Shown here piece by piece: positions 4,801 through 30,815 of a DNA stretch of 64,000 nt (the first letter of the stretch is position 1; each line of letters starts with the position of its first letter). The notes under the pieces were generated by a model. It was not told where the DNA came from. It worked only from the letters and a program-made list of their open reading frames with translations, and did not search any database. Source of the stretch: Rhodospirillales bacterium (GTDB lineage: Bacteria; Pseudomonadota; Alphaproteobacteria; Micavibrionales; UBA1664). A program made the position numbers and the translations under genes. The DNA lies in NCBI GenBank assembly GCA_023898805.1, contig CP060260.1, positions 1,425,656 to 1,489,655 of the forward strand. The letters are read 5' to 3'.

Positions 4801-4804
4801 AGCC

Positions 4805-7911: not shown

Positions 7912-7919
7912 ACAGCTAT

Positions 7920-9218: not shown

Positions 9219-9234
9219 CTTCTATAGTAATTCG

Positions 9235-10110
9235 ATGAAGCGTCATATTGATTCCACGGATGGGCCGCCCGCGCAAGCGTCGGGCTTGTATCTGGTTTCG
9301 ACCCCGATCGGCAATCTGCGCGACATCACCTTGCGCGCGTGCGACGTGCTGGCTGGCTGCACCGCGGTGGTGTGCGAGGATTCGCGCGTCACCGGCCGCC
9401 TGCTGCAATCGCTGGGCATTACGGCGAAACTGGTTGTTTACAACGATCACAGCACGGAATCCGAGCGCGATGCCCTCCTGAAATGGATTGAGGAGGACGG
9501 TGCGTCCCTCGCATTGGTCTCCGACGCGGGTACGCCGCTGCTTTCCGACCCCGGTTATAAACTGGTGCATCTGGCGCTGGCGCGCGGGCTTTCCGTGGTG
9601 CCAGTGCCGGGGGCGAACGCGCTTTTGCCCGCCCTGCAGCTTGCGGGACTGCCTTGCGACCGGTTTTTGTTCGCCGGGTTTCTGCCGCATAAATCGGCCG
9701 CGCGGCGGACGGTTTTTGCCGAACTCGCATCCGTTCCGGCAACGCTGGTATTCTACGAATCGCCCCAGCGCCTGCACGATTGCGTGTGCGACGCGCACGC
9801 GGTTCTGGGCGACCGTCCCGCCGCGACCGCCCGCGAATTGACCAAGATGTACGAGGAATCGCGCCGCTTCACGCTGGCTGCCGGTGCGGCCGACGAATGC
9901 CTTTTGGGGACAATGAAGGGCGAAATCGTGTTGCTGGTCGGCCCGCCGGTCGAATCGCGCGCGGGGCTGGAGGATATCGACACGGCCCTGCGCCGCGCCA
10001 TGGAAACGCTCTCGATTCGCGATGCGGCGGCGCATGTCGCGACCGCGACAGGCGCTCCGAAAAAACAGGTCTACGACCGTGCCCTCAGGTTGAAGAATGG
10101 GGACGATTGA
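9235..10110 (+). CDS. rsmI: 16S rRNA (cytidine1402-2'-O)-methyltransferase
   Basis: GLYLVSTPIGNLRDITLRA..., CEDSRVTGRLL and SDAGTPLLSDPG motifs. Start trimmed to ATG 9235, because the track ORF from 8974 overlaps the divergent lpoA-like gene. Confidence 0.9.
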   Translation: MKRHIDSTDGPPAQASGLYLVSTPIGNLRDITLRACDVLAGCTAVVCEDSRVTGRLLQSLGITAKLVVYNDHSTESERDALLKWIEEDGASLALVSDAGTPLLSDPGYKLVHLALARGLSVVPVPGANALLPALQLAGLPCDRFLFAGFLPHKSAARRTVFAELASVPATLVFYESPQRLHDCVCDAHAVLGDRPAATARELTKMYEESRRFTLAAGAADECLLGTMKGEIVLLVGPPVESRAGLEDIDTALRRAMETLSIRDAAAHVATATGAPKKQVYDRALRLKNGDD

Positions 10111-17209: not shown

Positions 17210-18466
17210 CTACCTGACGGCAGAATGCTCCAGCGCAAGGCGCCGCATGCCGGCATAGGCGGCCACGCCGGCAAAGCACAGCGTGGATACAAACCATGTC
17301 TGCCAGATGCCCCAGATCGACAGCGTGTATAAAAACGCGACCGCCCAGATGAACGTGCCAAAGCGCGCGCCCGTGGTATCGCGCCATGCGCACAGCCGCC
17401 GCGCGAACAGCGCAAACAGGAACACCAGCATCGCCGCGCCTGCCGCCCCCGTTTCGAACCAGATTTGCAGCGGCCCGTTATGCGGATGCAGGTGATGGAT
17501 ATATCTGGCATAAGGCCGTGTCGCGGCAAGGTATGACAATTCCCCGCGATTGGGCATCGCCCGCGCGGAATCAAGGCCCCACCCCAAAAACGTCTTTTCG
17601 CGCGTCCGGCGCGCCGCCTGATCCCAGATTTCGATGCGCGATTTAATCGAATCGTTCAAAACGCTTGAATTCCGCCACTCGACGCGCGCATCGATTTCAA
17701 GCGCGATCATCGGCATCGTCGCCACAATCAGGCCGGATACCGCAAGCGTCAGTAACGCGCCGGTTCGCGCCGGAAACAACAGCAAAGCCGGGGTTAGTGC
17801 GATCACGGCCAAAAGCACAACCTGTGCGGAGGCGCTATGCGTAAAAATCGTGATTCCGATGACGCAGGCGGCGGCCAGTACGAAAATAACGCGTTTGCGC
17901 CAGCCCGCGCGCAGAAAAAAGAAAGCGAACGCCAGATAAAGCCACAGCGCGCTTAATACCACGGCTTTGTTCTGCTTGCTGTCTATGGGGTCGTGGTCGC
18001 TGCCGCCGCGCAAAAGATCGTAAAATTTGAACCCATCCGCCACTTCGCTCAAATACATCGCAAGGCCAAGTCCAAGACCGATCATCAAAAATACGCCGAT
18101 GCGTTTAAAATCCGCCGTCCCCATCCGCCCGATGACCGGCACCAATAACGCGCTTGCGCCGAAATTGAGTATAAGCTGGATGGTCTTGGGCAGGACGTGT
18201 TCGGGATTGATGCTCCAGACGATGCTGGCGATTCCGAATGCGAGAAACGCGCCGAACAGCGTTGCCAGTCCCCGGTCGATGTCTGGCCGTGCGCGGCGTT
18301 GCCAGGAATCGATTGAAACCGCGACCAGCGCGCAACCGATGAACAAAGGCGCCATCACGCCGGGTATGCCGCAGCTCAAAAGCGGCCCCAGCATCAAAAG
18401 TGGCGCAAGCGCCCAGACCGCGGCGGCGGACCTGCCGTTGTCCACCGATATGTCGGACAGGCTCAT
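17210..18466 (-). CDS. O-antigen ligase family (Wzy_C domain) membrane protein; a WaaL-type ligase or a PglL-type O-oligosaccharyltransferase
   Basis: Polytopic membrane protein with the family motif HPHNGPLQIWFETGAAG in a large periplasmic loop. Confidence 0.8.
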   Translation of the reverse strand: MSLSDISVDNGRSAAAVWALAPLLMLGPLLSCGIPGVMAPLFIGCALVAVSIDSWQRRARPDIDRGLATLFGAFLAFGIASIVWSINPEHVLPKTIQLILNFGASALLVPVIGRMGTADFKRIGVFLMIGLGLGLAMYLSEVADGFKFYDLLRGGSDHDPIDSKQNKAVVLSALWLYLAFAFFFLRAGWRKRVIFVLAAACVIGITIFTHSASAQVVLLAVIALTPALLLFPARTGALLTLAVSGLIVATMPMIALEIDARVEWRNSSVLNDSIKSRIEIWDQAARRTREKTFLGWGLDSARAMPNRGELSYLAATRPYARYIHHLHPHNGPLQIWFETGAAGAAMLVFLFALFARRLCAWRDTTGARFGTFIWAVAFLYTLSIWGIWQTWFVSTLCFAGVAAYAGMRRLALEHSAVR

Positions 18467-19623
18467 GCGCGGCCGTAGAAGGCGCGGATCGCGGCGATGA
18501 CATGCCGCACGTCATCGTCGCTCAACGTCATGTTCATCGGCAGCATCATGCAGCGCGCGAAGAAATGATCGACCTTGGGCAATGACGGGGTCTGTGGGTA
18601 CAGATCCTTGAACTGGTGCACCGGCGTGCCCGCCCATTGAATGATCGTGCCGATGCCTTTGTCTTTAAGAAATTCACGCAAGGCGTCGCGGTTTTCGGCG
18701 GCCAGCTCGTAATTCTGGAACACATCGTAATGGTCTGGCTGGCTGTCCGGCCCGGCGGGCAGGCGCAGCTCGGCGACGTCCGAAAGCCCTTGCGTGTACA
18801 TCGCCGCGATGGCGCGCCGGCGCGCCATGATTTCGGGATAGGATTTGAAATTGTAATGCAGGAACGCGGCCTGAAGATTGTCCAGCCGCGAATTCGTACC
18901 CCACAACACCACCTTGCCGGTTTCGTCGCGCCCATGGTCGCGCAATGCGCGCAACGCGGCACCCAGCGTATCGTCGTTGGTGATCACCGCGCCGCCGTCG
19001 CCGAAACAGCCCAGAATCTTGGCGGGGTAAAAGCTGAACGTCCCGAAACGGCCGAACGTGCCGGCGGCCCGACCCTTATAGGTCGATCCCAGCGCCTGTG
19101 CCGCATCCTCCGCCACCATCAGCCCGTGTTTTTCGGCCAGGGCCATGATCGGGTCCATCGCGCAGGTCCGTCCGTTGACATGGGTCGGCAGGATCACGCG
19201 GGTCCGCTCGGTGATCAGGCGCTCGACCGATGCCGGGTCCATCAGGTTGTCCGGCCCGATATCGCACGGCACGGCGCGTGCGCCCAGCATCTGCGCCGCC
19301 GACGCGGTCGCGATATAGGTGTGCGAGGATACGATGACCTCGTCCCCCGGCTTCAGGCCGATGGCCATCAGCCCGATCATGATCGCGTTGGTGCCGTCCG
19401 CCGTGCCGATGACGTGCTTGACCTTCAGGAACTTGGCGATCGCGGCCTCGAACTCGCTCAGGTCCTTTTGCAGGATATACGCGCCGCGCCCGCACACGTC
19501 GCGGAAGATGCGCACGTAATCTTCCTCGTGATCCTTGAACAGGGCGGGATAGTTGAAAAACGGAATCTTGCGGTTATACGCATCAAGGCTTTCGTGAACC
19601 TTGGGGGCGGCGGCGTGCGACAT
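18463..19623 (-). CDS. DegT/DnrJ/EryC1/StrS-family sugar aminotransferase
   Basis: TADGTNA and FSFYPAKILGCFGDGGA motifs. ATGA-type overlap with the ligase gene. Confidence 0.85.
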   Translation of the reverse strand: MSHAAAPKVHESLDAYNRKIPFFNYPALFKDHEEDYVRIFRDVCGRGAYILQKDLSEFEAAIAKFLKVKHVIGTADGTNAIMIGLMAIGLKPGDEVIVSSHTYIATASAAQMLGARAVPCDIGPDNLMDPASVERLITERTRVILPTHVNGRTCAMDPIMALAEKHGLMVAEDAAQALGSTYKGRAAGTFGRFGTFSFYPAKILGCFGDGGAVITNDDTLGAALRALRDHGRDETGKVVLWGTNSRLDNLQAAFLHYNFKSYPEIMARRRAIAAMYTQGLSDVAELRLPAGPDSQPDHYDVFQNYELAAENRDALREFLKDKGIGTIIQWAGTPVHQFKDLYPQTPSLPKVDHFFARCMMLPMNMTLSDDDVRHVIAAIRAFYGRA

Positions 19624-19659
19624 GGGAAACCCTTTTAGGAGTTCGGTTGAACCTTATGT

Positions 19660-20589
19660 TTATGCATTCAAAAGCGTTTTCGCCTTGCGCGCAAGGCTTT
19701 CGGCGTTCAACCCATACAGGTCCTTCAGGTACCCTTGGTCGCCGACCACGGCGGTGTAGGTATCCGAAATCCCGGCTCGCGCGAAACGGGGCAGGGCCAT
19801 GCCGAATTCCAGCACGGTTTCGGCGACCGCGCCGCCCAGCCCGCCCAGGATCGTATTTTCTTCGACCGTGATGACGGCGCGGCTTGTCCCCATGATGGAG
19901 CGCAACCCCTCGGCGTCCAGCGGCTTGATCGTATGCGCGCTGACCACCCCGGCCTTGATGCCGTCGCCTGCCAGCGCCTGTGCCGCGCCGATGGCCGCGC
20001 CAAGGACTCCGCCGCAGGCGATGAAGGTCACGTCCGTTCCTCCCGGCAGAATGGTGCGCAGCCTGCCGATTTCGACCGCCGCGTCGTCATGCCCTTCCGG
20101 AATCGGGGCGGATGCCCGCTCCAGCCGCAGATAGAACACCCCCGGCGTGCGCAGCATGTGCTGCGTGCACGCCACGACCTCGGCGTCCGTCGCGGGCGCC
20201 AGCACGGTGATGTTGGGCAGGGCGCGCAGGATCGAAAGATCCTCGGTCGCGTGGTGCGACATGCCCAGCGCGCCGTATGAAAACCCGCCGCCCACGCACA
20301 CCACCTTGACGTTGGCGTTGTGATAGGCGGCATCGTTGCGGATCTGCTCCAGCGGGCGCAGCGTCGGAAAATTCCCGATCGAATAGCAAACGGTCTTGAA
20401 CCCTTCCTGCGCAAGGCCGGTGGCGACGCCGATCAGGTTTTGTTCGGCCACGCCGACATTCAGGAAGCGGTCCGGAAATTCCGCGACAAACGGCTCGATG
20501 ACGCTGAAGCCCAGATCGCCGGTCAGGAACATCACCGCCTCGTCCTGTGCGGCTTCGTCTTTCAATGTCTTCAGGAACAGATCGCGCAT
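19660..20589 (-). CDS. Transketolase, C-terminal (pyrimidine-binding) subunit
   Basis: FLNVGVAEQNLIGVATGLA and the transketolase C-terminal domain. Start trimmed to MRDLFLKT at 20589, one nt after the stop of the N-terminal subunit. Confidence 0.85.
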   Translation of the reverse strand: MRDLFLKTLKDEAAQDEAVMFLTGDLGFSVIEPFVAEFPDRFLNVGVAEQNLIGVATGLAQEGFKTVCYSIGNFPTLRPLEQIRNDAAYHNANVKVVCVGGGFSYGALGMSHHATEDLSILRALPNITVLAPATDAEVVACTQHMLRTPGVFYLRLERASAPIPEGHDDAAVEIGRLRTILPGGTDVTFIACGGVLGAAIGAAQALAGDGIKAGVVSAHTIKPLDAEGLRSIMGTSRAVITVEENTILGGLGGAVAETVLEFGMALPRFARAGISDTYTAVVGDQGYLKDLYGLNAESLARKAKTLLNA

Positions 20590-20590
20590 C

Positions 20591-21403
20591 TTACGCTCCC
20601 GCCATGATCTCGGCGCGCGCGCGCTCGAATTCCTCACCCCGCGCGGTCCGGTAATGCCACAAAACCGCGTGCTCCATGAACGATACGCCCTTGCCCTTGA
20701 TGGTGTGCGCGATCACCGCGCGCGGGGCTGTGGCTCGCGCCGGATCGACGTCCAGCGCCGCCGCCAGCGCATCGTGGTCGTGTCCGTCGACCTCGACGAC
20801 ATCCCAGCGAAAGGCGCGCAATTTGTCCGCGAACGGCTCCAGCCCCAAAGTTTCCTCGGTCGATTGCAGGCTCTGGATCTTGTTGTGGTCGATGACCGCG
20901 ACCAGATTGCGCAGCTTGTGGTGGCCGGCGAACAAAAACGCCTCCCAGTTCGAGCCCTCGTCGCATTCCCCGTCGCTCAAAACGCAGTACATGCGCGCGT
21001 TCGACTTGCGCTGGCGCAGGGCATAGGCCCGCCCCGCGCTGACCGGCAACCCGTGGCCCAGCGATCCCGTCGAAAGTTCGACCCCCGGCACGTTCTTGTG
21101 CGACACGTGCCCCGACATGATCGACCCGTTGGTGTAATAGGCGTCCAGTGTATCCTTGGGGAAAAAGCCGCGCTCCGAAAGCGCGACATAGATCGCCGCG
21201 CCCGCATGGCCCTTGGACAGGATGAAACGGTCGCGCCCCATCCATTGCGGATTGGCGGGATCGAGTCGCATCACCTTGCCGTATAAAACCGCGATGATGT
21301 CGGCCATCGAGAAGATCGAGCCGATATGCGATCCGCCCCCGCGGCTGGTCATTTCCAGCGTTTTAAGGCGTATGGTCTTGGCCAGCGCGCGCGAATCCAT
21401 CAA
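20591..21403 (-). CDS. Transketolase, N-terminal (ThDP-binding) subunit
   Basis: GGGSHIGSIFSMADI, SKGHAGAAIY and SDGECDEGSNWEA (ThDP/Mg motif). The likely ATG at 21400 overlaps the upstream methyltransferase stop. Confidence 0.85.
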   Translation of the reverse strand: MMDSRALAKTIRLKTLEMTSRGGGSHIGSIFSMADIIAVLYGKVMRLDPANPQWMGRDRFILSKGHAGAAIYVALSERGFFPKDTLDAYYTNGSIMSGHVSHKNVPGVELSTGSLGHGLPVSAGRAYALRQRKSNARMYCVLSDGECDEGSNWEAFLFAGHHKLRNLVAVIDHNKIQSLQSTEETLGLEPFADKLRAFRWDVVEVDGHDHDALAAALDVDPARATAPRAVIAHTIKGKGVSFMEHAVLWHYRTARGEEFERARAEIMAGA

Positions 21404-22221
21404 TTCGTTCCGTCCTTTTTACGCATGGCGCAGAACAGCACCTTGTATTCGCGGTTCGGCCCTTCGCCGGAAATCGGCTGCGGCTTTTCGTAAGGGCAGG
21501 TCGAGGCGCCGATTTCGTCCGGCAGACGGACCATCTGCCCGAATACCAGCCGCTTCATCCATTTCTTGCCCGCCGTGGTCTTGGGCATCAGCCCAAGATG
21601 GACGACGATGCGCTTGACCGGACGCAGCACGCGCTGGCGCAGCGACACGCGTTTAAGCGGCGTGCCCCCCGCAAGCTCGGCCACCGTGAACCCCGCGCTT
21701 TCAGCCAGTGCCGCGAAATCGGCGGCACCGTAATACGCATGGCTGAACGGGCTGGGGTTAAAATCGTACAGATCCTTGTTGGCAGAGGCGATCAGCACCA
21801 TGCCCTCCGGGCGCAGGACGCGTCGCGCCTCGCGCAAAAACGCGGCGGCGTCGGGCAGGTAATAGATGGCCTCGAACATCAGGACGACATCCGCCGAATG
21901 GTCGCCGTAGGGCAGTTTCACGGCGTCCGCGGTGTCGATGCGGATGCGGCTGCCGTAATGCGCGCGCGGCGCGCCCAGCACTTCCTCGGCCACGTCGCAA
22001 GCCTGCACGCTGCGTGCGACCGCCTGTAAATACCCAAGTCCCGCGCCGGTGCCGCACGCGACCTCGACGACATCCTTTTCGCGCGCATATTCGCCCGCCC
22101 AGTAATAACGGTTGCACAGGCGTTGCAACTGCTCGGCCGAAATTTCATCGCCGCTCATTTCGGTGACGTCCTTATAGGTCATGTCCTTGCTGTCGGCTGT
22201 TGCGGTGGCGGTTGCGGTCAT
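21400..22221 (-). CDS. Class I SAM-dependent methyltransferase
   Basis: Motif I VVEVACGTGAG. Start trimmed to MTATATATAD at 22221, giving an ATGA overlap with the upstream stop. The 424-aa track ORF has an Arg-rich spurious extension. Confidence 0.75.
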   Translation of the reverse strand: MTATATATADSKDMTYKDVTEMSGDEISAEQLQRLCNRYYWAGEYAREKDVVEVACGTGAGLGYLQAVARSVQACDVAEEVLGAPRAHYGSRIRIDTADAVKLPYGDHSADVVLMFEAIYYLPDAAAFLREARRVLRPEGMVLIASANKDLYDFNPSPFSHAYYGAADFAALAESAGFTVAELAGGTPLKRVSLRQRVLRPVKRIVVHLGLMPKTTAGKKWMKRLVFGQMVRLPDEIGASTCPYEKPQPISGEGPNREYKVLFCAMRKKDGTN

Positions 22222-22961
22222 GCGGCTACCTTGTCTCTGGTGGTGACGATTTCGCTGGCGCCGGGCGGCGGCGCGGGTTGCAATGGCTCGTGCCGCGCGG
22301 CGATACGACGCAGGTCTTCGGGCGCGCCCAGCGCGGCCAGAATTTGCTGCACGCCCTGCAGCGCCTTTGGCTTGTCCAGAATCGCGACGACGGTCAAAAG
22401 AATCAAGCGGATGTCGAGCCACAAGGAAGCATTTTCGACGTACAGGATTCCAAGGCGACTTTTGCCGGGGCGGATCAACTGGTTGTAGGCGATATCCGGG
22501 TCGGGCTGGTCCTTGAGGATGTCGCCCTCGTCCGAAAACACGATCGATGCGATGTCGGTGATGCCGGGCCGCACGCTCAGAAGCTTGCGTTCCTCGGTCG
22601 TATACAGATCGGTTTCGCGTTTGACGTTGGGACGTGGGCCGACCAGCGACATGTCGCCCCGAAGTACGTTCCAAAGCTGCGTGATTTCGTCCAGCTTGTA
22701 ACGCCGGATCATGTGGCCCACGCGCGTGATGCGCATGTCGTTGGCGCCGGTCGAATCGACACCGGATTTATCGGCGTTCTTGACCATGGAACGCAGCTTG
22801 GCCATGCGAAACGGCGTGCCGTTCAATCCTACGCGCGGCCCCATGTAAAACGGCGAATGTCCATCCTGCCGCCAGACCAGAAACATGAACACGGCGATGA
22901 CGGGGCTGAAGATCAGCAGGCCGCAGGCAGCCGCGATGATATCGAAAGTGCGTTTGATCAT
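22218..22961 (-). CDS. Small monotopic undecaprenyl-phosphate sugar-phosphotransferase (PglC/WbaP-C-terminal type initiating transferase)
   Basis: MIKRTFDIIAAACGLLIFSPV re-entrant helix, then PFRMAKLRSM, DEITQLWNVLRGDMSLVGPRP. Start trimmed to 22961. Confidence 0.85.
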   Translation of the reverse strand: MIKRTFDIIAAACGLLIFSPVIAVFMFLVWRQDGHSPFYMGPRVGLNGTPFRMAKLRSMVKNADKSGVDSTGANDMRITRVGHMIRRYKLDEITQLWNVLRGDMSLVGPRPNVKRETDLYTTEERKLLSVRPGITDIASIVFSDEGDILKDQPDPDIAYNQLIRPGKSRLGILYVENASLWLDIRLILLTVVAILDKPKALQGVQQILAALGAPEDLRRIAARHEPLQPAPPPGASEIVTTRDKVAA

Positions 22962-22971
22962 GCAGCGGACA

Positions 22972-24408
22972 TTAAACCGCTTTTTCGGGATTGCCAATAA
23001 AACCCGCCGAACGTCCCACATGCCGCACGGCATAGAGCAGACCGGCCAGGCACGCCGCGCCCGTGACGCCGATATCGACCATGAACAGCGCCAGCGTATT
23101 GTGGATAAATCGCCCGGCCAGCCAGTCGATGCTGTAAGGCGTAAGCCCGGCGGCCAGCACGCACAGCAACAAAAACGCATAGCGCCGCGCGCGCAAGTGC
23201 AGCGCCCAGAATACAAAGCCGATATAGGACAGGTGGTACAGGCATTGGATGACGACGAACACCGCCACCGCCTCCAGCGCCGCCATGCCCGTGCGCAGGC
23301 CCAGAACGACCGCGACCACCGCCGCGCCGTCGAAAGCGATTTGCAGCATCAGGGGAATATCCTGCCGCCCGCGTACCTCGAACACGCGTTCCGGCCACGA
23401 CGTCATCATGAACAGCACTGCGACCGGTGCGAACAGGCTGGCATACACGCCCGCCTCGGCCCAGCGCGCGCCGAACACGAACCCGAATGTTTCCGTGTCC
23501 CAAAGCGTAAAGGCACCCAGCACCGGCGCGGTCAGGCACGCGGTTGCCAGCATCAGCGCATAGGCGAAATCGGCAAATCGCGGATCGTCGATCGAGCGCG
23601 CCGCCTCGCGGTAGAACACCTGCCCAAGCGATGACGAAACAAGGCTGACCGGCGCCAGCATGGCGGTCCGCGCCATGCCGTAAAGACCGGCGGCGGCGGG
23701 CTGGTGGAACGCGGTCAGGGCCAGAATCAGGAATTCGCGCGTGAACGTGCCGATCAGGCTGTAAGGCATATTGAACAGCGGGAATTTGCGGTATTTTGTG
23801 ACGATCGCCCGAACGTCGACCGGTGCCAGCAGACCGCGGAAATGCGCGCGCAGACGCATAACGCCCAGAATCTGGCCTGCCACCCGCGCGGCGACAAGCC
23901 CCACCGCGCCCAGACCCGTTGCACCCAGACCGATCGCCGCCGCCCCGTTGATCAGCTGGATATGGACATTCGACGCCGCGATAGCGCCGTAATCGCGGTG
24001 CCGTGTCGCGGAATACCCGCCGATCTGGGCGCAGGTCATCAGGAATGCCAGCACCGGCGCGGCGCAGATCCAGTACCCGATATCCGGAAACCCGAATCGC
24101 GCCACCAGTACGGGCTGGAAAACGCCGAAGATCAAAAGCATCGCCACCATGACCCAGAACGCAAGCCGCAAAGCCGCGCGTGCGATCGAAAGCCCTTCGG
24201 TCTCGTCGGCCGGCAGGACGATGGCGACCTCAAGCCGCAAGGCGCCCATCGCGGCCAGCACGCTGGCAAGCGCCAGAATTCCTGAAAAAACGCCATAAGC
24301 CCCCGGCCCGTAAAGCCGCGATATCACGGGCAGCATCACGATCGGGATCAACTGCCCCAGGGCCGCGCCCCGAAACATGGTGAAGGAATGTTTGATGAAC
24401 TGTGACAT
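22972..24408 (-). CDS. wzx: Wzx-type oligosaccharide flippase (MOP superfamily)
   Basis: About 478 aa and 12-14 predicted TM helices, with an N-terminus typical of polysaccharide flippases (FRGAALGQLIPIVMLPVISRLYGPGAYG). Start trimmed to MSQFIKHS at 24408. Confidence 0.75.
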   Translation of the reverse strand: MSQFIKHSFTMFRGAALGQLIPIVMLPVISRLYGPGAYGVFSGILALASVLAAMGALRLEVAIVLPADETEGLSIARAALRLAFWVMVAMLLIFGVFQPVLVARFGFPDIGYWICAAPVLAFLMTCAQIGGYSATRHRDYGAIAASNVHIQLINGAAAIGLGATGLGAVGLVAARVAGQILGVMRLRAHFRGLLAPVDVRAIVTKYRKFPLFNMPYSLIGTFTREFLILALTAFHQPAAAGLYGMARTAMLAPVSLVSSSLGQVFYREAARSIDDPRFADFAYALMLATACLTAPVLGAFTLWDTETFGFVFGARWAEAGVYASLFAPVAVLFMMTSWPERVFEVRGRQDIPLMLQIAFDGAAVVAVVLGLRTGMAALEAVAVFVVIQCLYHLSYIGFVFWALHLRARRYAFLLLCVLAAGLTPYSIDWLAGRFIHNTLALFMVDIGVTGAACLAGLLYAVRHVGRSAGFIGNPEKAV

Positions 24409-24480: not shown

Positions 24481-25104
24481 ATGTCCTACGTGGCTGTCAT
24501 TGATTATGGTGCGGGCAATATCGGCTCGGTGCTTAATATGTTCAAAAAGATCGGCGTTGCCGCGAAGGCCGCCGCGACGCCCGAATCCGTCGCCGATGCC
24601 GCGCGCATTCTTCTGCCGGGCGTGGGTGCCTTCGACCATTGTATGCAGGCGCTCAACGCCTCCGGCCTGCGCGACGCGCTTGAACGCGCGGCCCTGTCCG
24701 ACAAAAAACCGTTTCTCGGCATCTGCGTGGGGCAACAGATGATGCTCGAAGGCTCGGACGAGGGGAAATTGCCCGGTCTTGGCTGGATCCCGGGGCGCAA
24801 TGTACGCTTTGCCGACATCCCCGGCCGTCGTGTCCCGCATATGGGCTGGACCGAAGTCGCACCCACCTGCGCGCACCCGTTATTCGACGGTTATGCCGAA
24901 CCGCCGTGTTTTTATTTCGTGCATTCATACCATCCTGCCTGCGCGCACGCCGAAAACGTGCTGGCCACCGCCGATTATGGCGGTGCGTTCTGCTGCGCCG
25001 TGCATGCGGATAACGTCGTCGGCGTCCAGTTCCACCCGGAAAAGAGCCATAAATACGGTATGAAATTCCTGATCAACTTTGCCGGCTGGCGGGCCAAGTC
25101 ATGA
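24481..25104 (+). CDS. HisH-like glutamine amidotransferase subunit (WbuY type)
   Basis: Class-I GATase with GICVGQQ (nucleophile Cys) and VQFHPEKS. It lies in a glycan cluster beside HisF-like and WbpG-like genes. Confidence 0.85.
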   Translation: MSYVAVIDYGAGNIGSVLNMFKKIGVAAKAAATPESVADAARILLPGVGAFDHCMQALNASGLRDALERAALSDKKPFLGICVGQQMMLEGSDEGKLPGLGWIPGRNVRFADIPGRRVPHMGWTEVAPTCAHPLFDGYAEPPCFYFVHSYHPACAHAENVLATADYGGAFCCAVHADNVVGVQFHPEKSHKYGMKFLINFAGWRAKS

Positions 25105-25868
25105 TCCGCCCGCGCGTCATACCCACGCTGCTGCTTAAAGGGCGCGGCCTTTATAAAACGGTCAAATTCGCCGATCCCAAATATGTCGGCGATCCGATCA
25201 ACACCATGCGCATTTTCAACGACAAGGAAGTCGATGAAATCGCGGTGCTGGACATTACCGCCAGCCGCGAGGCGCGCGGCCCTGACATGGACCAGATTAT
25301 GGAGATAGTCTCCGAATGCTTCATGCCGCTGGCCTATGGCGGCGGCATCACGACGCGCGATCAGGCGATGCGCCTGTTTCAGTGCGGGGTTGAAAAGGTG
25401 ATCCTGAATACGGCCGCGGTGGAACGCCCGGAACTGATCACCGAAATCGCCGAGGCTGCCGGGGCGCAGGCCGTGGTCGTGGCGATCGACGTGAAAAAGC
25501 CTCTGATCGGCGGGCCGAAAGTCTATACCCACGGCGGTACGCGCAAGACCGCGCTAGACCCGGTTGCATGGGCGAAGGAGGCGCAGGCGCGCGGCGCGGG
25601 CGAGATTCTGCTCACCGCCATCGATCGAGAAGGCACGATGGCGGGATACGACGTGGCCCTGACTCGCGCGGTGGCCGATGCGGTAAACGTGCCTGTCATC
25701 GCTTGCGGCGGCGCGGGCGGGCTGTTAGATTTCCGCGCGGTCCTTGACCAAGGCCATGCATCCGCCGTCGCGGCGGGCAGCCTGTTCGTCTTTCAGGGGC
25801 CGCACCGCGCGGTCCTGATCTCCTATCCGACAAGGGCCGAATTGTTATCGCTGACCCTGGAAAGTTGA
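25101..25868 (+). CDS. HisF-like cyclase/synthase subunit (WbuZ type)
   Basis: RVIPTLLLKGRGLYKTVKF..., YGGGI and GAGEILLTAIDREGT, consistent with a HisF TIM barrel. ATGA overlap with the hisH-like gene. Confidence 0.85.
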   Translation: MIRPRVIPTLLLKGRGLYKTVKFADPKYVGDPINTMRIFNDKEVDEIAVLDITASREARGPDMDQIMEIVSECFMPLAYGGGITTRDQAMRLFQCGVEKVILNTAAVERPELITEIAEAAGAQAVVVAIDVKKPLIGGPKVYTHGGTRKTALDPVAWAKEAQARGAGEILLTAIDREGTMAGYDVALTRAVADAVNVPVIACGGAGGLLDFRAVLDQGHASAVAAGSLFVFQGPHRAVLISYPTRAELLSLTLES

Positions 25869-27007
25869 ATATGACGGCATATCAGGTCTGTACACGCTGC
25901 GTGATGGATACCAGCGACCCGGAAATCACGTTCGACGATGCGGGCGTCTGTTCCCACTGTCACGCATTCGACCGCACCATGCGTGCGGAGCTTGAATCCG
26001 CGCAGGCGGGCCGCCTTGAACCCGCGCTCGATGCGCTGATCGAGACGATGAAGGCCGAAGGCCGCGGCAAGCCGTATGACGCGATCATGGGTCTTTCGGG
26101 CGGCGTGGATTCCAGCTACATCGCCTGGCTGGTCGGGCAAAAGGGTTTGCGTGTTCTGGCGGTCCACTGCGATTCCGGCTGGAACTCGGAACTGGCGGTC
26201 GCCAACATTGAAAACATCGTCAAGAAAATCGGCTTCGACCTATACACGGAAGTAATCGATTGGGAGGAAATGCGCGATCTCCAGCTGGCGTTTTTCAGGG
26301 CTGGTCTTGCCAATTGCGACATCCCGCAGGACCACGCCTTCATGGCGGTGCTCTACAAGGTCGCCAAAAAACACGGCATCCGGCATATCCTCTCCGGCTC
26401 CAATCTTTCCACGGAATCGATCTTACCCTTGTCATGGGGGTATAACGCGCTTGATCTGCGTCATTTACGCGCCGTGCATAAACGCTTCGGGCGGGTGAAA
26501 CTGAAAACTTTCCCCGTCCTGCCGATGTGGAAACGCTATATCCTGTATCCGTTCTTCCACGGGATGCGCTTCGTGCGGGTGCTCAATTACGTGCCGTATT
26601 ACAAGGACCGCGCGAAAAAACTGATCGCGGACGAACTGGGCTGGCGCGATTACGGCGGCAAGCATTACGAATCGATCTTCACCAAATTCTTCCAGTCCTA
26701 TTACCTGCCGGTGAAATTCGGCTTTGACAAACGCCGCGCGCATTACGCGTCCCTGATCGTCTCGAACCAGATGACGCGGGATCAGGCGCTGGCCCAGTTA
26801 CAGCAGCTTTCTTACGACCCCGCGACGATCGAGGGCGACAAGGAATTCGTGGCCAAGAAAATGGGCGTATCCGCCGCGGAGTTCGACGCGATCATGGAAT
26901 CGCCGCCGCATTCATATCGCGATTATCCGTCGAATGAAGGGCTGTTTGAGTTCAAGGATTGGGTCATGAAATCCCTTGTACGAAAACGCGTGCGGAGAGG
27001 CGTATGA
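25865..27007 (+). CDS. wbpG: N-acetyl-sugar amidotransferase (WbpG/WbuX family, PP-loop ATPase)
   Basis: N-terminal Cys cluster CTRCVMDTSDPEITFDDAGVCSHC and PP-loop GLSGGVDSSY. Overlaps the neighbouring genes on both sides. Confidence 0.85.
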   Translation: MNMTAYQVCTRCVMDTSDPEITFDDAGVCSHCHAFDRTMRAELESAQAGRLEPALDALIETMKAEGRGKPYDAIMGLSGGVDSSYIAWLVGQKGLRVLAVHCDSGWNSELAVANIENIVKKIGFDLYTEVIDWEEMRDLQLAFFRAGLANCDIPQDHAFMAVLYKVAKKHGIRHILSGSNLSTESILPLSWGYNALDLRHLRAVHKRFGRVKLKTFPVLPMWKRYILYPFFHGMRFVRVLNYVPYYKDRAKKLIADELGWRDYGGKHYESIFTKFFQSYYLPVKFGFDKRRAHYASLIVSNQMTRDQALAQLQQLSYDPATIEGDKEFVAKKMGVSAAEFDAIMESPPHSYRDYPSNEGLFEFKDWVMKSLVRKRVRRGV

Positions 27008-28626
27008 TCAAAAATGCCGCCATTTTCGCGGGTGTTTTGTCTGCCTATGGCTTGATGAACCTGCTTGCGGCGGTCATGACCAGCGTGGCGCTTTTGCATA
27101 TTTATATTTATAACCGCCATTGGTTTATGCGTCCCAGCCTGATGGTCGCGGGCTTGATGAATTTATTTTTTCAATGGCCGCTCGCGGTTTATGCGGGCTA
27201 TTACGCCGAATGGTTACCCCATCCTTTCGATCTTGCGCTCGTGGTCCATTTGCCGGTGCTGGCCGCGCTGCTGGCGGCGGCGCTTTTTCCGGACCGCGCC
27301 TTGCGCGATACGTGGGCGCGCCTGAACCCGGGTACGGGTGATGGTGGCCTACCCGTACGCGTGTGGGCCGTTATCCTTGGCGGTCTTGGTGTTCTGGTCG
27401 TGTTGTTCGCGGGCGTGTATTTCGCTTATGTGCCGTGGCGTTGCACAGGCCTGCACGCGATGCTTTACGAATTCACGAATGTCGCCATCTATCGCGAAAT
27501 TTCATTGAAAATGCTTAGTCACGCTTTGCCGCGATATGCCTACAGCCTGCTCTCCAGTGCATTGCTGCCGGTATTCTATATGTTTTCTGCATTGCTGGTT
27601 GCGGGGGCGATCAAAAACGGTCAAAAATCCATCGCCGCTCTGGCAGTTTTTTTGTGCATGCTGTGCCTGCCTTTGTTGATGCTCGTCGGTGCGAAGGGCA
27701 TCGCCGTGATGGTGTTATTGCAGACATCTTTGCTTTTTTTCTGGCGTGCGCAGCTGCATGCGACACCCGCGCGTCTGGCGGCAATTATCGTTCTTCCCAT
27801 GCTGCCCGCATTCCTTTTTATGGCTTCGCTGGCGCTGGTATCGCAAAAACAGGGTGTCCCGCTCACGCTGGATCAGGCATACCGGGCCTGTAACGTCGCG
27901 CTGGATTCTCAAATCATCAAGACGCCGCAATTGATTGAAAACGAAAGGATCGCGAAAGAGGTTTCTTTGCCGAAAAAACCGGCGACGGCAAAAATCGACG
28001 ACGATTCTTCTGATATTTCTTCGGTGTCTTCAAAACCTTATGAAGACGCAAACGCCAGACATCCGATCAAACCGCAGGCCGTACAGGATGTTGATACGGG
28101 ACACCTTTCGGACGCAAAGGTAATCTACCTCAATGTAATGGCGGTGATGTTTCGCGTATTCGCCACACCGCTTATGGCAGGAAGCTGGCACATACATTAC
28201 ACACAGTTTCAGGGGGTTACCGGTCTACTTGGATTGAACGCTTACGCGCATCTGGTCGCCGTTCCTTATATCGATATCCCCAATCGCGTGGGATTGATAT
28301 ACGGGCCGGTTTATTACGGACACGAAGTCATCAATACGATCAGCGTAAGCACCGGTTTTGTTTTTACGAATTACGATTATCTGGGGATTTCAAGCGTTAT
28401 CCTTAGCGTCATCATGCTGCTGCTGCAGGATCTTGTAATTCTTGTGTACCGCTTCGTTTCCCGTGACATACTGGCGGCCTTTCTGGCTGTCGTCAGCATG
28501 GCCAGCCTGCGCATGCTGCAGACGGATGTTACGGTGGTTTGGGTATCCCACGGATATCTGATCTCGATGCTGTTGATCGGCGCGGCCCAGACGATTATTT
28601 GTTTTCTGAACCGGAGAGGCGGATGA
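27004..28626 (+). CDS. Polytopic membrane protein, putative O-unit polymerase (Wzy-like), with a central hydrophilic insertion
   Basis: About 540 aa and many TM helices. The codon composition is visibly AT-richer than the neighbours, and there is no recognisable conserved motif. The call rests on context (wzx, ligase and a GT are present; no other polymerase candidate). Start at 27004 (MIKNAAIF), ATGA overlap. Confidence 0.5.
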   Translation: MIKNAAIFAGVLSAYGLMNLLAAVMTSVALLHIYIYNRHWFMRPSLMVAGLMNLFFQWPLAVYAGYYAEWLPHPFDLALVVHLPVLAALLAAALFPDRALRDTWARLNPGTGDGGLPVRVWAVILGGLGVLVVLFAGVYFAYVPWRCTGLHAMLYEFTNVAIYREISLKMLSHALPRYAYSLLSSALLPVFYMFSALLVAGAIKNGQKSIAALAVFLCMLCLPLLMLVGAKGIAVMVLLQTSLLFFWRAQLHATPARLAAIIVLPMLPAFLFMASLALVSQKQGVPLTLDQAYRACNVALDSQIIKTPQLIENERIAKEVSLPKKPATAKIDDDSSDISSVSSKPYEDANARHPIKPQAVQDVDTGHLSDAKVIYLNVMAVMFRVFATPLMAGSWHIHYTQFQGVTGLLGLNAYAHLVAVPYIDIPNRVGLIYGPVYYGHEVINTISVSTGFVFTNYDYLGISSVILSVIMLLLQDLVILVYRFVSRDILAAFLAVVSMASLRMLQTDVTVVWVSHGYLISMLLIGAAQTIICFLNRRGG

Positions 28627-29738
28627 ACAGGCGTGTCGTGCATCTTTCAAGCGCCCATCCGGCCGAGGATACGCGCATTTTCGTCAAGGAATGCCGCACG
28701 CTTGCGGCTGCGGGATACGACACGCATATCGTCATCTCGACGGCTCACGGCTACGAGAAGGATGGCGTCAAATTTCACGCGCTGGCGCAACGTCCGGGGC
28801 GCTTTTACCGCATGTGCGTAAAGCCGCTGCACGCGTATCGGGCTGTGCGTGCGCTTGCGCCGGATGTTTTGCATGTGCATGAGCCTGATCTGTTGCCGTT
28901 GGCATGGTTGTTCGCCCGTCGTGGCGTGCATGTAATCTACGACTCGCATGAAGACCTGCCTCGTCAGATACCTTACAAGGACTGGATACCGGCCCCCCTG
29001 CGCGGGCCGATAGCGCGTATCGTTGAGTGGTTCGAGGACGGAATCTGCCGCAGCCTCGCGGGCGTGGTCGCGGCTACACCGCATATCGCCGATCGGTTTT
29101 ACAAGGCGGGCGTGAACGCCGTGTGCGTTGCCAATTTCCCGAACCTTTCTGAGCTTGCCATGCCTGCGGGGGAAAGCTGGGATGCACGCGAAAAATCCGT
29201 TGCCTATATTGGTACGATCTCCGTGGAACGGGGTGTGAACGAGTTGCTGCAAGCGGCGAAAATAGCGGATGTGAAAATCCATATCGCGGGCTTTCCGCAT
29301 CCAGCCGCGCTTGGCGAAACCTTGAAATCCGCGCACGAACGCGGCGAGATCGTCTATCACGGCGCGATCAGCCGCGATGCGGTACTAGACTTGATGCGCA
29401 CGCTGCGCGGCGGCATCGTATGCTTCCATCCGCTGCCCAATCACGTCGACGCCCAGCCGAACAAACTGTTCGAGTATATGAGCGCGGGCCTGCCGGTCAT
29501 CGCGTCCCATTTTCCGCTATGGCGCGAGATTATCGAAAAATCTGGCTGTGGCATATGCGTCGACCCGAATAAGCCGCGCGCGATCGCCGAAGCCATCCGC
29601 TATATCCTCGATCATGACTGGGATGCCAAGGCCATGGGCGAACGCGGCCAGAATGCGGTGCGCGAACGGTACAATTGGGAAGTGCAGGCCGATATCCTGC
29701 TCGCCTTCTATCGCGATATCCTAAAAGAAGCCGTGTGA
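28623..29738 (+). CDS. GT4-family glycosyltransferase
   Basis: GT-B fold with the C-terminal EX7E-type region (NKLFEYMSAGLPVIAS). Start at 28623 (MNRRVVHLSSAHP), ATGA overlap. Confidence 0.85.
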   Translation: MNRRVVHLSSAHPAEDTRIFVKECRTLAAAGYDTHIVISTAHGYEKDGVKFHALAQRPGRFYRMCVKPLHAYRAVRALAPDVLHVHEPDLLPLAWLFARRGVHVIYDSHEDLPRQIPYKDWIPAPLRGPIARIVEWFEDGICRSLAGVVAATPHIADRFYKAGVNAVCVANFPNLSELAMPAGESWDAREKSVAYIGTISVERGVNELLQAAKIADVKIHIAGFPHPAALGETLKSAHERGEIVYHGAISRDAVLDLMRTLRGGIVCFHPLPNHVDAQPNKLFEYMSAGLPVIASHFPLWREIIEKSGCGICVDPNKPRAIAEAIRYILDHDWDAKAMGERGQNAVRERYNWEVQADILLAFYRDILKEAV

Positions 29739-30815
29739 TTCCAGCGCGTCGACGATCTTGCGCGCGGCTTGGCCGTCGCCGAAATACGGTTTGAACGGCA
29801 CCTGCGGCTCGTGCGCCTGCATCGTGTTCCAAAGATCGGGGCGCAAGGGCTTGTCGAACGCGCCGATGCAGGTCACCCATCCGTCGGCAGTCAGTTGCGG
29901 CCAAGGACTAATGTCCTGCGCAAGGAAACTTTTACGCCCGGCCCAGTAGGATTCTTTTTGCAGCCCGCCGGAATCGGTCACCGTGAACGTGCATTGCAAC
30001 AACGCGGCCATCGTGTCGAAATAGGCCAGCGGCGGTGTCATCGCCAGATGCGGCAGCTTTTCAAACTGTTCCTTCAGGCCGAATTTTTCCATCGCCGCGG
30101 CCGTGCGCGGATGCACCGCGAACAGAATCGGCAGCGGGCTTTGCGCGATCAGATCGTATAAACGGCCCATCGCATCCGCTGTGTCCGTGTTGGCCGGGCG
30201 GTGGATGGTCATGAAGACAAAAGGCTTGCCCGCGAATTTCTTTGTGTGCAGCGCAAGCGTATCCGAAACGGCCGCCGTCGGACGAAATTTGACGAAGGCG
30301 TCGTACATCAGATCGCCGGTCAAAAAGACGCCCGCCTCGATCCCCTCGCGCTTCAGGTTTTCGACTGATACCGCATCGGTGCAAAACCGCAGCCGTGAAA
30401 GATGGTCGGCGGGAATGCGGTTGACTTCCTCCGGCATGGTCATGTCGCCGGTGCGCGGTCCCGCCTCGACATGCGCCAGCGGAATGTTCAGCTTTGCCGC
30501 CGCCAGCACGGCAGCCAGCGTGCTGTTGGTGTCGCCATACACCAGCACGCCGCGCGGCGATTGTTCCAGCATCAAGTCCTCAAGCTGGACCATCATTTCC
30601 GCCGTCATGCGGGCATGGCTGCGCCCGTCGATGGTCAAAAACCGGGACGGAGCGGGAATGCCCAACTGCTCGAAAAACACGCCCGACATGGCATGATCGT
30701 AATGCTGGTTGGTGTGGACAATGTATTCGGTCAGCCCGCGCGCGGCGATTTCCGTGGAAACCGGCGCCATTTTGATCATTTGCGGCCTGTTGCCGATGAC
30801 GGTGAGTAAACTCAC
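29721..30815 (-). CDS. Non-hydrolysing UDP-N-acetylglucosamine(-uronate) 2-epimerase, WecB/WbpI-like
   Basis: IGNRPQMIKMAPV, GDTNSTLA, HVEAGPRT and VTDSGGLQKE motifs of the epimerase_2 family. Confidence 0.85.
   Translation of the reverse strand: MSLLTVIGNRPQMIKMAPVSTEIAARGLTEYIVHTNQHYDHAMSGVFFEQLGIPAPSRFLTIDGRSHARMTAEMMVQLEDLMLEQSPRGVLVYGDTNSTLAAVLAAAKLNIPLAHVEAGPRTGDMTMPEEVNRIPADHLSRLRFCTDAVSVENLKREGIEAGVFLTGDLMYDAFVKFRPTAAVSDTLALHTKKFAGKPFVFMTIHRPANTDTADAMGRLYDLIAQSPLPILFAVHPRTAAAMEKFGLKEQFEKLPHLAMTPPLAYFDTMAALLQCTFTVTDSGGLQKESYWAGRKSFLAQDISPWPQLTADGWVTCIGAFDKPLRPDLWNTMQAHEPQVPFKPYFGDGQAARKIVDALESHGFF

Follow-up and report, generated by a model that had tools for sequence, protein, structure and literature searches.

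The window, by which we mean the whole 64-kb stretch of DNA analyzed, carries a run of seven minus-strand genes at positions 17210–24408, in which neighbors abut or overlap and whose families were called with Pfam and NCBIfam. The run begins with a MOP-family, Wzx-like flippase (22972–24408; Pfam Polysacc_synt_3, 5.6e-16; weak NCBIfam match to MOP flippases) with ten hydrophobic segments. It is followed by a small monotopic PglC-like phosphoglycosyl transferase (PGT; 22218–22961; Pfam Bac_transf, 1.8e-48), a protein of 247 residues that starts at the ATG at 22961, contains a 'KLDE' motif (Asp-Glu dyad) and a 'VGPRP' motif and is 50–79% identical to PGTs from related cassettes. This PGT is predicted to transfer the finished UDP-sugar to undecaprenyl phosphate. 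The stop of the third gene, a class I SAM methyltransferase (MT; 21400–22221; Pfam Methyltransf_11, 2.3e-18), overlaps the start of the first of two transketolase (TK) genes. TK-N is the diphosphate-binding subunit (20591–21403; Pfam Transketolase_N, 2e-41), and in its database copy the start is placed at the ATG at 21400. [quoted passage not shown] The last two genes encode a DegT/DnrJ/EryC1 PLP aminotransferase (18463–19623; Pfam, 1.8e-95), with Lys202 within a 'SFYPAK' motif, and a membrane protein with a Wzy_C domain (17210–18466; Pfam Wzy_C, 3.3e-15), which has eleven hydrophobic segments and is 41% identical to the protein at the same position in a syntenic locus, L086.

The junctions along the run measure, in order, +10, -4, -4 (or -1), +1, +36 and -4 nt, so that translational coupling of its genes looks likely. 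An earlier note made from the sequence had listed these seven overlapping or abutting genes and their families, and Pfam and NCBIfam confirm them. The note's naming of the last product as a Wzy_C ligase held as far as the domain is concerned, but Pfam alone does not separate a ligase from an O-antigen polymerase. An ORF with 11 predicted transmembrane segments and without a Pfam match (26959–28626) is a second candidate for one or the other of them.

Divergent from the run, on the plus strand at 24481–27007, lies a HisH/HisF2(WbuZ)/WbuX module for acetamidino formation (NCBIfam: HisH, 1.4e-64; AglZ/HisF2, 357 bits, and WbuX, 293 bits, both above cut-off), which is part of the same glycan locus. 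On the minus strand at 2060–6184, WbpA/WbpB/WbpD/WbpE-like genes (Pfam UDPG_MGDP_dh, GFO_IDH_MocA, Hexapep and DegT) are predicted to produce UDP-2,3-diacetamido-2,3-dideoxy-hexuronic acid, a separate sugar supply for the same glycan; their WbpE-like DegT protein is only 35% identical to the DegT of the run. A second transketolase, a PglF-type 4,6-dehydratase and a TylF-type methyltransferase are all missing from the 64 kb, and the only candidate keto-sugar-forming enzyme there is the WbpB-like oxidoreductase, about 13 kb from the cassette. The earlier observation that heptose (gmh) genes are missing near the run extends to the whole window.

The closest structural matches of the two TK subunits are those of a split TK (TK-N to PDB 6YAK, 4e-73, 249 bits; TK-C to 6YAJ, 2e-46, 162 bits). 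TK-N scores 254 bits, below the NCBIfam transketolase cut-off of 488 bits. His26, His66, His99/His102, Asp144 (SDGE), Asn174 and His250 of TK-N are invariant across the clade. Its members thus retain the histidines that bind the C1-OH of the donor, together with the ThDP/metal motif and the catalytic Glu of 'AEQN'. The acceptor side differs. Where canonical enzymes have 'THAGxTVGEDGxSHQ', TK-C has 'VGGGFSYGALGMSHH', with the His changed to Gly100 and the Asp to Leu108. Both changes are present in 84 of 84 clade members and in none of 120 housekeeping split TK-C proteins, while TH..GEDG is found in all 120 housekeeping split TKs, in human TK and in 6YAJ. Most TK-C proteins of the cassette clade have also exchanged the Ser for Gly. 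Studies of yeast and E. coli TK have shown that the His binds the substrate phosphate and the Asp the acceptor C2-OH. Of the four TK phosphate ligands, two are retained, the equivalents of Arg358 and Arg520. Mean TK-C identity between the cassette clade and housekeeping split TKs is only about 37%. By these alignments, the acceptor/phosphate site of the cassette TK is remodeled and has lost ligands that real transketolases have.

Searching genomes with TK-N gave at least 590 tblastn-confirmed matches, of which we sampled the best 80; these come from at least 15 phyla, and a TK-C gene adjoins TK-N in all of them. Neighbors were counted with a simple ORF caller, ignoring kinship, in the 47 of these 80 loci that have full 10-kb flanks. 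The earlier note had proposed such a survey of co-occurrence, and it gave a small PGT in 42/47 loci, a DegT in 41/47, a TylF-type MT in 26/47, a PglF-type dehydratase within 10 kb in 20/47 (43%) and a Methyltransf_11 MT in 13/47. Forty-five TK loci have an orthologous DegT, 11 have an aldo-keto reductase and none has both (Fisher p = 1e-4, kinship ignored). The reductase gene immediately precedes TK-N, with an overlap at the TK-N start in locus L076, and was confirmed by Pfam in L021. Orthologues of the window MT (35–69% identity) occur in 18/45 DegT-type cassettes, in 2/6 with a class-I/II aminotransferase and in 0/11 of the reductase type; in the PDB, the MT itself weakly matches two methyltransferases, 3BUS and 6UV6, of which the second is entered as a D-glucose O-methyltransferase. 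In some loci the TK pair stands without either DegT or reductase. The TK clade is specific to glycan cassettes, and the cassette spans many bacterial phyla. In Actinoplanes missouriensis, the wps-2 cluster has MT, TK-N, TK-C and DegT in the order seen here, and its deletion leaves growth normal (PMC13390465), so the TK of wps-2 is not the essential TK of that organism.

We then considered the DegT from the other side, with eight homologues (59–70% identity) picked only for their long contigs and blind to TK. All eight lie in a PGT/MT/DegT cassette that has, in place of TK-N and TK-C, either separate PDH-E1 alpha and beta proteins or a single protein in which the two are fused. PGT (60–79% identity to the window), MT (51–69%) and DegT are orthologous between the two cassette types, while E1 alpha and beta are only 23–29% identical to TK-N and TK-C. 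The MT orthologue is present in six of the eight (L086–L089, L091 and the P0285 contig); L090 has no MT adjoining its DegT, and L092 has a Methyltransf_11 gene that was matched to the window MT by family only. Two of the loci, L086 and L092, share synteny with the window: in both, the Wzy_C gene adjoins ftsH, and tilS comes next in L092. In a neighbor-joining tree (drawn without support values) the window DegT is nested within the E1-type clade. The clade of the window DegT is thus always found beside a two-subunit ThDP enzyme (8/8 sampled loci of the E1 type; 45 with the split TK), and the PDH-E1-like enzyme is a non-orthologous replacement of the cassette TK. The best PDB matches of the DegT are three C3-aminotransferases, DesV (2OGA, whose deposited name is 'Transaminase'), WbpE and QdtB; PglE and PseC are absent from its listed matches. 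The list also includes NtdA and 2-deoxy-scyllo-inosose aminotransferases, which act on non-nucleotide keto substrates.

Taken together, these comparisons lead us to favor, with somewhat more confidence than doubt, a model in which MT, TK-N, TK-C, DegT and the small PGT build the lipid-linked sugar with which a surface glycan begins, and in which TK adds a two-carbon branch to a keto-sugar before amination and methylation. The heteromeric TK would take a ketol donor (a ketose phosphate or hydroxypyruvate) to form the ThDP-bound dihydroxyethyl carbanion, and would add this to the carbonyl of a UDP-keto-sugar, giving a tertiary alcohol with a hydroxyacetyl branch. The likeliest acceptor may be UDP-2-acetamido-2,6-dideoxy-hexos-4-ulose from a PglF-type dehydratase; this is a guess, since such an enzyme is missing from the window and turns up within 10 kb in just 43% of related loci. 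DegT would then transaminate the side-chain ketone to a 1-amino-2-hydroxyethyl branch, a ketone that the aldo-keto reductase of sister cassettes would reduce instead. The product would be methylated by MT, probably at the new amine, and the PglC-like PGT would move the sugar phosphate onto undecaprenyl phosphate, after which Wzx and the Wzy_C protein would handle the repeat unit. The earlier note had suggested such a transfer of a two-carbon ketol to a nucleotide keto-sugar, followed by amination and methylation, and the comparative evidence supports it. Some observations speak against the model: the mutual exclusion of DegT and reductase is also expected if both act on a ring C4 carbonyl, as in PglF-PglE-PglC logic, the two retained phosphate ligands leave room for a phosphorylated acceptor, and certain loci carry the TK pair but lack both DegT and reductase. 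No case of a TK accepting a ketone in vitro is known yet (PMC12247030).

Competition for the ring carbonyl is central to a rather unlikely alternative, a classical 4-amino-sugar module. Here DegT or reductase would act on the C4 carbonyl of the PglF product to give an initiating sugar of the bacillosamine/AAT or QuiNAc/FucNAc type, and the ThDP enzyme would serve separately, for example by supplying a glycolyl or acetyl group for N-acylation. A small PGT, a DegT and a PglF-type dehydratase (20/47 full loci) are the textbook layout, and no separate N-acetyltransferase is conserved with the cassette in the related loci surveyed. However, the PDB entries closest to the DegT are those of the C3-aminotransferases DesV, WbpE and QdtB, with PglE and PseC missing from the listed matches, a ThDP enzyme beside all eight blind-sampled members is unexpected for a generic 4-aminotransferase, and reductase-type cassettes keep TK although the amine to be acylated would be absent. 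Four of the 11 reductase-type loci have an additional DegT at PglE distance. Turning ThDP-bound (di)hydroxyethyl into an acyl donor would also require an E2-lipoyl partner or an oxidant, neither of which the cassettes contain. It is improbable that TK instead extends a chain, adding the ketol to a nucleotide-sugar aldehyde (e.g., at C6) to give a higher-carbon octos-7-ulose sugar for amination by DegT, an option that the earlier note also allowed. Aldehydes are the natural TK acceptors, and genes for a UDP-sugar 6-dehydrogenase are found both in 11 related loci and, at 4805–6184, in the window, but no aldehyde-forming enzyme is conserved with the cassette in the related loci, the Asp that recognizes an alpha-hydroxy-aldehyde acceptor is lost, and the interchangeable PDH-E1-like class is documented for ketone acceptors, 4-keto or 3-keto sugars (PMC12247030).

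We give an equally small chance to a non-sugar amino-polyol (phosphate) substituent, in which the ThDP enzyme would make a ketose or 1-deoxyketose phosphate in TK- or DXS-like fashion and DegT or reductase would convert it to an amino-alditol or alditol phosphate on the glycan. The two basic phosphate ligands of TK-C, the NtdA and 2-deoxy-scyllo-inosose aminotransferases among the DegT matches, the AsnB-like amidoligases in 12 related loci and the LicD-family phospho-alcohol transferase that follows the TK pair in Faecalibacterium (L059; PGT-TKN-TKC-LicD, without DegT or reductase) would fit. Nevertheless, half of the phosphate site disappears with the His-to-Gly and Ser-to-Gly changes, the related loci show no nucleotidyltransferase, kinase or phosphatase as a conserved companion of the cassette, its tightest partner belongs to the PGTs, enzymes that use UDP-sugars, and the partner TylF-type methyltransferases are annotated as sugar O-methyltransferases. 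An ordinary transketolase for local supply of pentose-phosphate or sedoheptulose-7-phosphate precursors is scarcely credible, even though all cofactor-binding and catalytic residues are intact and the solved structure most like it comes from a functional split TK. Neither the window nor the related loci have heptose or pentitol pathway genes, and the idea of sedoheptulose supply found no support. The clade lacks the His and Asp kept in 120/120 housekeeping split TKs, scores below the transketolase cut-offs and gives way to a PDH-E1-like enzyme in orthologous cassettes, and A. missouriensis grows normally once its homologous cluster is deleted (PMC13390465). The glycan-specific clade, the altered site, the E1 replacement and this growth phenotype support the earlier view that the TK pair probably does not serve the pentose-phosphate pathway.

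The preferred branching model has relatives among known systems. PDH-E1-like (alpha-KADH2) enzymes attach two-carbon branches to keto-sugars, and the branch ketone is then reduced or transaminated (PMC12247030). Those of aldgamycin, kosinostatin, paulomycin and kibdelomycin (KbDH-alpha/beta) are, like the cassette TK, two-subunit ThDP enzymes; they act on a nucleotide keto-sugar to leave an alpha-hydroxy-ketone branch, which in kibdelomycin is transaminated, as proposed for the cassette (PMC12247030). Their Pfam architecture is that of the enzyme that stands in for TK in orthologous cassettes. They differ in belonging to actinomycete secondary-metabolite clusters and in using pyruvate to form an acetyl branch, whereas the cassette has a transketolase, for which hydroxyacetyl is expected, and has its place, in many phyla, within a surface-glycan locus of the Wzx/Wzy kind that carries a PglC-type PGT. 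YerE/YerF (yersiniose A) and the YerE-like ErwE and MMAR_2332 of LPS loci provide a ThDP-dependent C-branching of a nucleotide 4-keto sugar in an O-antigen locus, after which the branch ketone is modified further, as we propose here (PMC12247030, PMC9306805). However, YerE belongs to the decarboxylase (AHAS-like) superfamily and consists of a single chain; its substrates are 2-keto acids and a CDP-3,6-dideoxy sugar, and the ketone undergoes reduction instead of amination. The housekeeping split TK of Carboxydothermus hydrogenoformans (6YAK/6YAJ) has the same two-gene architecture, fold and ThDP-, metal- and donor-binding residues as the cassette TK, but such enzymes lack the fixed His-to-Gly and Asp-to-Leu changes and have another genomic context. 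The PglF-PglE-PglD-PglC bacillosamine module similarly makes an initiating sugar with a DegT and a small monotopic PGT, in many cases alongside a PglF-type dehydratase; the cassette differs from it in having no acetyltransferase, a DegT of another clade, an obligatory ThDP enzyme and at least one methyltransferase.

[quoted passage not shown] As far as the published descriptions go, these enzymes and another 13 from Streptomyces (Krug et al. 2024, summarized in PMC12247030) would share this putative function with the cassette TK, but belong to peptidyl-nucleoside antibiotic pathways and are confined to Streptomycetes. Split TKs for sugar branching had earlier been proposed only in Streptomyces antibiotic clusters.

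The seven tightly packed minus-strand glycan genes that the earlier note had read from the DNA are borne out by coordinates, junctions and Pfam/NCBIfam families. In order, they encode a MOP flippase (22972–24408), a small PglC-type phosphoglycosyl transferase (PGT) of the Bac_transf family (22218–22961, 247 aa, PF02397, 164.9 bits), a Methyltransf_11 methyltransferase (MT; 21400–22221), the two subunits of a split transketolase (TK), TK-N (Transketolase_N; 20591–21403) and TK-C (Transket_pyr and Transketolase_C; 19660–20589), a DegT aminotransferase (18463–19623, PF01041, 320.7 bits against a cut-off of 19.8) and a Wzy_C protein (17210–18466). The junctions from flippase to Wzy_C are +10, -4, -4/-1, +1, +36 and -4 nt. 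The PGT is PglC-like and monotopic by its short length, its Asp-Glu dyad (KLDE) and its PRP motif (VGPRP). DegT carries its Schiff-base lysine at Lys202 (SFYPAK) and falls in none of the characterised equivalogs PseC, WecE, DesI, ArnB and LegC, all of which score far under their cut-offs (PseC, 197 vs 423). No second TK, PglF-type dehydratase, keto-sugar-forming 4,6-dehydratase or TylF-type MT was found within the 64-kb window.

The operon adjoins tilS-ftsH and faces a HisH/HisF2/WbuX acetamidino module (24481–27007, plus strand), an 11-TM ORF, a GT4 gene, a UDP-GlcNAc 2-epimerase-family gene (29721–30815, minus strand) and another MT. A WbpA/B/D/E-like gene set lies at 2060–6184 (minus strand). 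The Wbp-like, 2-epimerase-family and HisH/HisF2/WbuX genes, which housekeeping genes including tilS and ftsH part into two blocks, together look like those of the O5-type pathway by which Pseudomonas aeruginosa makes 2,3-diacetamido/acetamidino mannuronic acids. The Wbp-like and WbuXYZ genes suggest that 2,3-diamino-uronic acids bearing an acetamidino group are probably further constituents of the glycan. The 11-TM ORF between WbuX and GT4 (26959–28626, plus strand, 555 aa, about 11 hydrophobic segments, no Pfam match) may encode an O-antigen polymerase, and the Wzy_C protein could accordingly be either ligase or polymerase. The remainder of the window consists of housekeeping genes; within it, the product of 47900–48577 (plus strand) matches DotI/IcmL, a component of type IVB secretion (Pfam 1.8e-16). 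At 34460–37233 (minus strand), the gene for an exopolysaccharide protein of the YjbH family precedes a 526-aa ORF without a Pfam match; these may be part of a separate polysaccharide export system.

Relatives of TK-N at 56–70% identity occur across a very wide range of bacteria. Our scan, limited to one genome per species, returned at least 590 confirmed relatives, the best 80 of which were analyzed. These 80 come from Alpha-, Beta- and Gammaproteobacteria, Bdellovibrionota, Desulfobacterota, Myxococcota, Planctomycetota, Acidobacteriota, Armatimonadota, Gemmatimonadota, Actinomycetota, Nitrospirota, Nitrospinota, Verrucomicrobiota, Chloroflexota, Bacteroidota, Bacillota, Cyanobacteriota, Patescibacteria and Methylomirabilota. 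In Pfam-annotated contexts from a Bdellovibrio, a Pirellulales member and two metagenome contigs, the block small PGT/TylF-type MT/DegT/TK-N/TK-C sits among Wzx, Wzy, GT4 and Wzz genes, with or without a Methyltransf_11 MT and a PglF-type dehydratase. The survey confirmed the association of split TK with DegT and MT that the earlier note had proposed to look for: of the 47 loci whose 10-kb flanks are complete, all 47 have an adjacent TK-C, 42 a small PGT, 41 DegT, 26 a TylF MT, 20 PglF and 13 a Methyltransf_11 MT (genes were called with a simple ORF caller, in the 80 loci closest to the query). The PGT has been inherited along with the cassette, at 50–79% identity. Unsupervised clustering of the neighbours revealed no conserved nucleotidyltransferase, kinase or heptose gene.

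Some related loci depart from this arrangement. In Faecalibacterium sp. CAG:74 (locus L059, 9222–12495), four genes (PGT/TK-N/TK-C/LicD-family phosphotransferase) directly follow parA-parB, with no DegT, reductase or other glycan gene nearby, and this minimal set does not fit neatly into a branched-amino-sugar scheme. Locus L005 has a second, lone TK-C-like gene (4953–5954, minus strand) without a TK-N partner, beside a second PGT and MT and a few kb from a full cassette. A search of a plasmid collection with TK-C recovered only relatives at most 42% identical, from other split-TK families (rhizobia and others). Split-TK C subunits 37–42% identical, seen for instance in the plasmid record NZ_CP026539.1 (101443–102366) and on many Rhizobium/Sinorhizobium megaplasmids, are common on rhizobial megaplasmids; these TKs belong to different, probably catabolic, families.

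To the earlier note, a more mundane explanation of the TK pair was local supply of sedoheptulose-7-phosphate. The absence of heptose genes, on which that note had already remarked, holds within the 64-kb window. The active site also points away from an aldose phosphate as acceptor. The cofactor and donor residues are kept: the ThDP/Mg2+ motif of TK-N (LSDGECDEG ... DHN) has Asp144 and Asn174 invariant in the clade, the catalytic glutamate of the Pyr domain is conserved in clade TK-C (VAEQN), and His26 and His250 of TK-N, invariant in the clade, align to 6YAK and human TK at the positions of the donor C1-OH-binding histidines (yeast His30/His263, human His37/His258). On the acceptor side, the canonical TK-C motif THAGxTVGEDGxSHQ, which the functional split TK 6YAJ, human TK and 120 of 120 split TK-C proteins of the housekeeping type retain, is changed to xGGGFSYGxLGxSHH in 84 of 84 cassette proteins. 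In yeast numbering, the sugar-phosphate/acceptor site comprises Arg359, Ser386, His469, Asp477 and Arg528. All 84 proteins have lost the His (to Gly) and the Asp (to Leu) of this site, at Gly100 and Leu108 in the window TK-C. In the TKs of yeast and E. coli, this His is a ligand of the substrate phosphate, and this Asp contacts the acceptor C2-OH and sets stereospecificity. The phosphate-binding Ser is replaced by Gly in most clade members and kept in the window TK-C, and both phosphate-site Arg positions are still basic (Arg or Lys). Both subunits score under the cut-off (488 bits) of the full-length TK model NF004559 (TK-N 254, TK-C 180). As the cofactor and donor residues are kept and the acceptor His and Asp are lost, the cassette TK should still form the ThDP-bound ketol carbanion, with something other than an aldose phosphate as the acceptor. 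With a remodelled site and no heptose genes in the window, we rejected heptose precursor supply.

The genes next to the TK pair suggest what becomes of its product. Beside TK, we found either an orthologous DegT (at least 45% identity, 45 loci) or an aldo-keto reductase (AKR, 11 loci), never both (2x2 table 0/45/11/29, Fisher p = 1e-4, kinship of the loci being ignored). The order GT4/TylF-MT/PGT/AKR/TK-N/TK-C is shared by Adhaeretor mobilis (L021, in which Pfam confirmed Aldo_ket_red) and an Acidobacteriaceae genome (L076). A few other loci have a class-I/II aminotransferase or an SDR at this position, and some have a TK pair with neither DegT nor reductase. Five loci (L022, L034, L030, L049 and L072) represent a third cassette variant: the TK pair has with it a class-I/II aminotransferase, which adjoins TK-N or lies no more than about 3 kb away, and a more distant DegT (36–38% identical). 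Acetyl branches on sugars are documented to have their ketone aminated or reduced (PMC9306805; PMC12247030). By analogy, the alternation fits a ThDP product whose new ketone would be aminated or reduced; taken alone, it would also fit two enzymes that work on a ring carbonyl.

To separate these two readings, we analyzed the context of eight homologues of the window DegT (59–70% identity), picked solely because they lie on long contigs. The same cassette surrounds all eight, and in all eight the place of TK-N/TK-C is taken by PDH-E1 alpha and E1 beta, either as two proteins or fused into one of 706–713 aa. The other members of these E1-type cassettes remain close to those of the window (PGT 60–79%, Methyltransf_11 MT 51–69%, DegT 59–70% identity); they are often joined by a Wzy_C gene and, in L089, by an adjacent PglF. 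The E1 proteins are only 23–29% identical to the TK subunits. They match PDH E1 alpha and beta models, under the equivalog cut-offs, and their best PDB match is human PDH E1 alpha. No E2 or E3 was found near the E1-type genes. Without its E2, an E1 enzyme is capable of carboligation, not of acyl transfer. Two of these loci, L086 and L092, share synteny with the window: each has its Wzy_C gene directly beside ftsH, tilS comes next in L092, and the fused genes lie at 7149–9290 and 7149–9269, respectively. One genomic site thus bears either ThDP enzyme. In a neighbour-joining tree without support values, rooted with the window WbpE-like protein, the window DegT lies inside the E1-type clade, itself nested among TK-type DegTs (for the homologues P0243 and P0244, we inferred the TK-type label).

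PDH-E1-like enzymes (alpha-KADH2) are the class known for adding C2 branches to nucleotide keto-sugars, as in the pathways to aldgamycin, kosinostatin, paulomycin and kibdelomycin; in vitro, KbDH-alpha/beta takes ketones as acceptors, and the kibdelomycin branch ketone is transaminated (PMC12247030). By replacement in eight of eight orthologous cassettes, TK would be functionally equivalent to this recognised class of branching enzymes. This non-orthologous replacement is the strongest argument that TK may catalyze an analogous carboligation, with hydroxyacetyl in place of acetyl.

In the resulting scheme, TK would join a UDP-keto-sugar and a ketol donor into a tertiary alcohol with a hydroxyacetyl branch, DegT would convert this branch to 1-amino-2-hydroxyethyl, MT would methylate the aminated product and the small PGT would transfer the sugar to undecaprenyl phosphate. 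Orthologues of the Methyltransf_11 MT occur in 20 of 51 aminotransferase-type cassettes vs none of the 11 reductase-type ones, which hints at N-methylation; weak PDB matches of this MT include a D-glucose O-methyltransferase. A similar absence of TylF-type MTs from reductase-type cassettes was discarded as an artefact of the 45% identity threshold, as Pfam detects divergent TylF genes there. The earlier note had proposed C2 transfer by TK to a nucleotide keto-sugar followed by amination and methylation. This proposal is strengthened by facts at the gene level (the alternating DegT/AKR, the E1 replacement and the remodelled site); its chemistry, acceptor, donor and order of steps are inferred.

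Several observations weigh against branching by TK. Two basic phosphate ligands persist in TK-C. A PglF-type keto-sugar-forming dehydratase, present no more than 10 kb away in 20 of 47 related loci, is missing from the window. The Faecalibacterium TK pair has only PGT and a LicD-family gene, and other loci have neither DegT nor reductase. Ketone carboligation has been shown for no TK (PMC12247030). N-acylation by a ThDP-derived acyl group was dropped as lead idea because reductase-type cassettes lack an amine and neither an oxidant nor an E2 partner accompanies the enzymes. On balance, we lean slightly towards the branching scheme as a whole. Its broader form is more tentative, and we hold it to be possible but somewhat short of probable: more than 15 phyla would start a surface glycan with a hitherto undescribed class of sugar, of HexNAc type and bearing a C-linked 1-amino-2-hydroxyethyl branch (or 1-aminoethyl with the PDH-E1-like enzyme), often N- or O-methylated, and the split TK clade would be the first natural TK family for carboligation of nucleotide-sugar ketones.

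In the full-text literature, we found no functional assignment for a split TK in a glycan locus, and the sole description is that of wps-2 in Actinoplanes missouriensis, where MT/TK-N/TK-C/DegT stand in the same order as in the window (PMC13390465). That paper gives domain annotation only, leaving the functions of these genes unspecified, and neither growth nor sporangia were affected when wps-2 was deleted (PMC13390465). The best 80 of at least 590 TK-N relatives include five Actinoplanes loci. Literature matches for Cobetia and Bordetella avium were irrelevant. For sugar branching by split TK, the accessible literature offers no more than a proposal limited to antibiotic clusters of Streptomyces: PMC12247030 gives 13 putative sequences, all from Streptomycetes, and branching by the miharamycin/amipurimycin enzymes is proposed only. 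In LPS, the accessible literature on ThDP branching has only YerE-like enzymes. The cassette of split TK (or E1 alpha/beta), DegT/AKR, MT and PglC-type PGT in surface-glycan loci of many phyla is therefore new as a variant.

The hundreds of diverse natural enzyme pairs (TK-type, E1-type, aminating and reducing) offer a means to probe ketone acceptance by TK, a question of biocatalysis bearing on functionalised tertiary alcohols. As these genes are annotated as plain "transketolase", metabolic reconstructions, especially of MAGs, can miscredit a pentose-phosphate step. If true, our scheme would carry ThDP-dependent sugar branching by TK beyond a handful of unproven antibiotic clusters in Streptomyces and into primary cell-surface glycans throughout the bacterial tree. 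O-antigens, capsules and EPS would then commonly have, at their reducing end, branched amino sugars of a class that has so far gone unseen.
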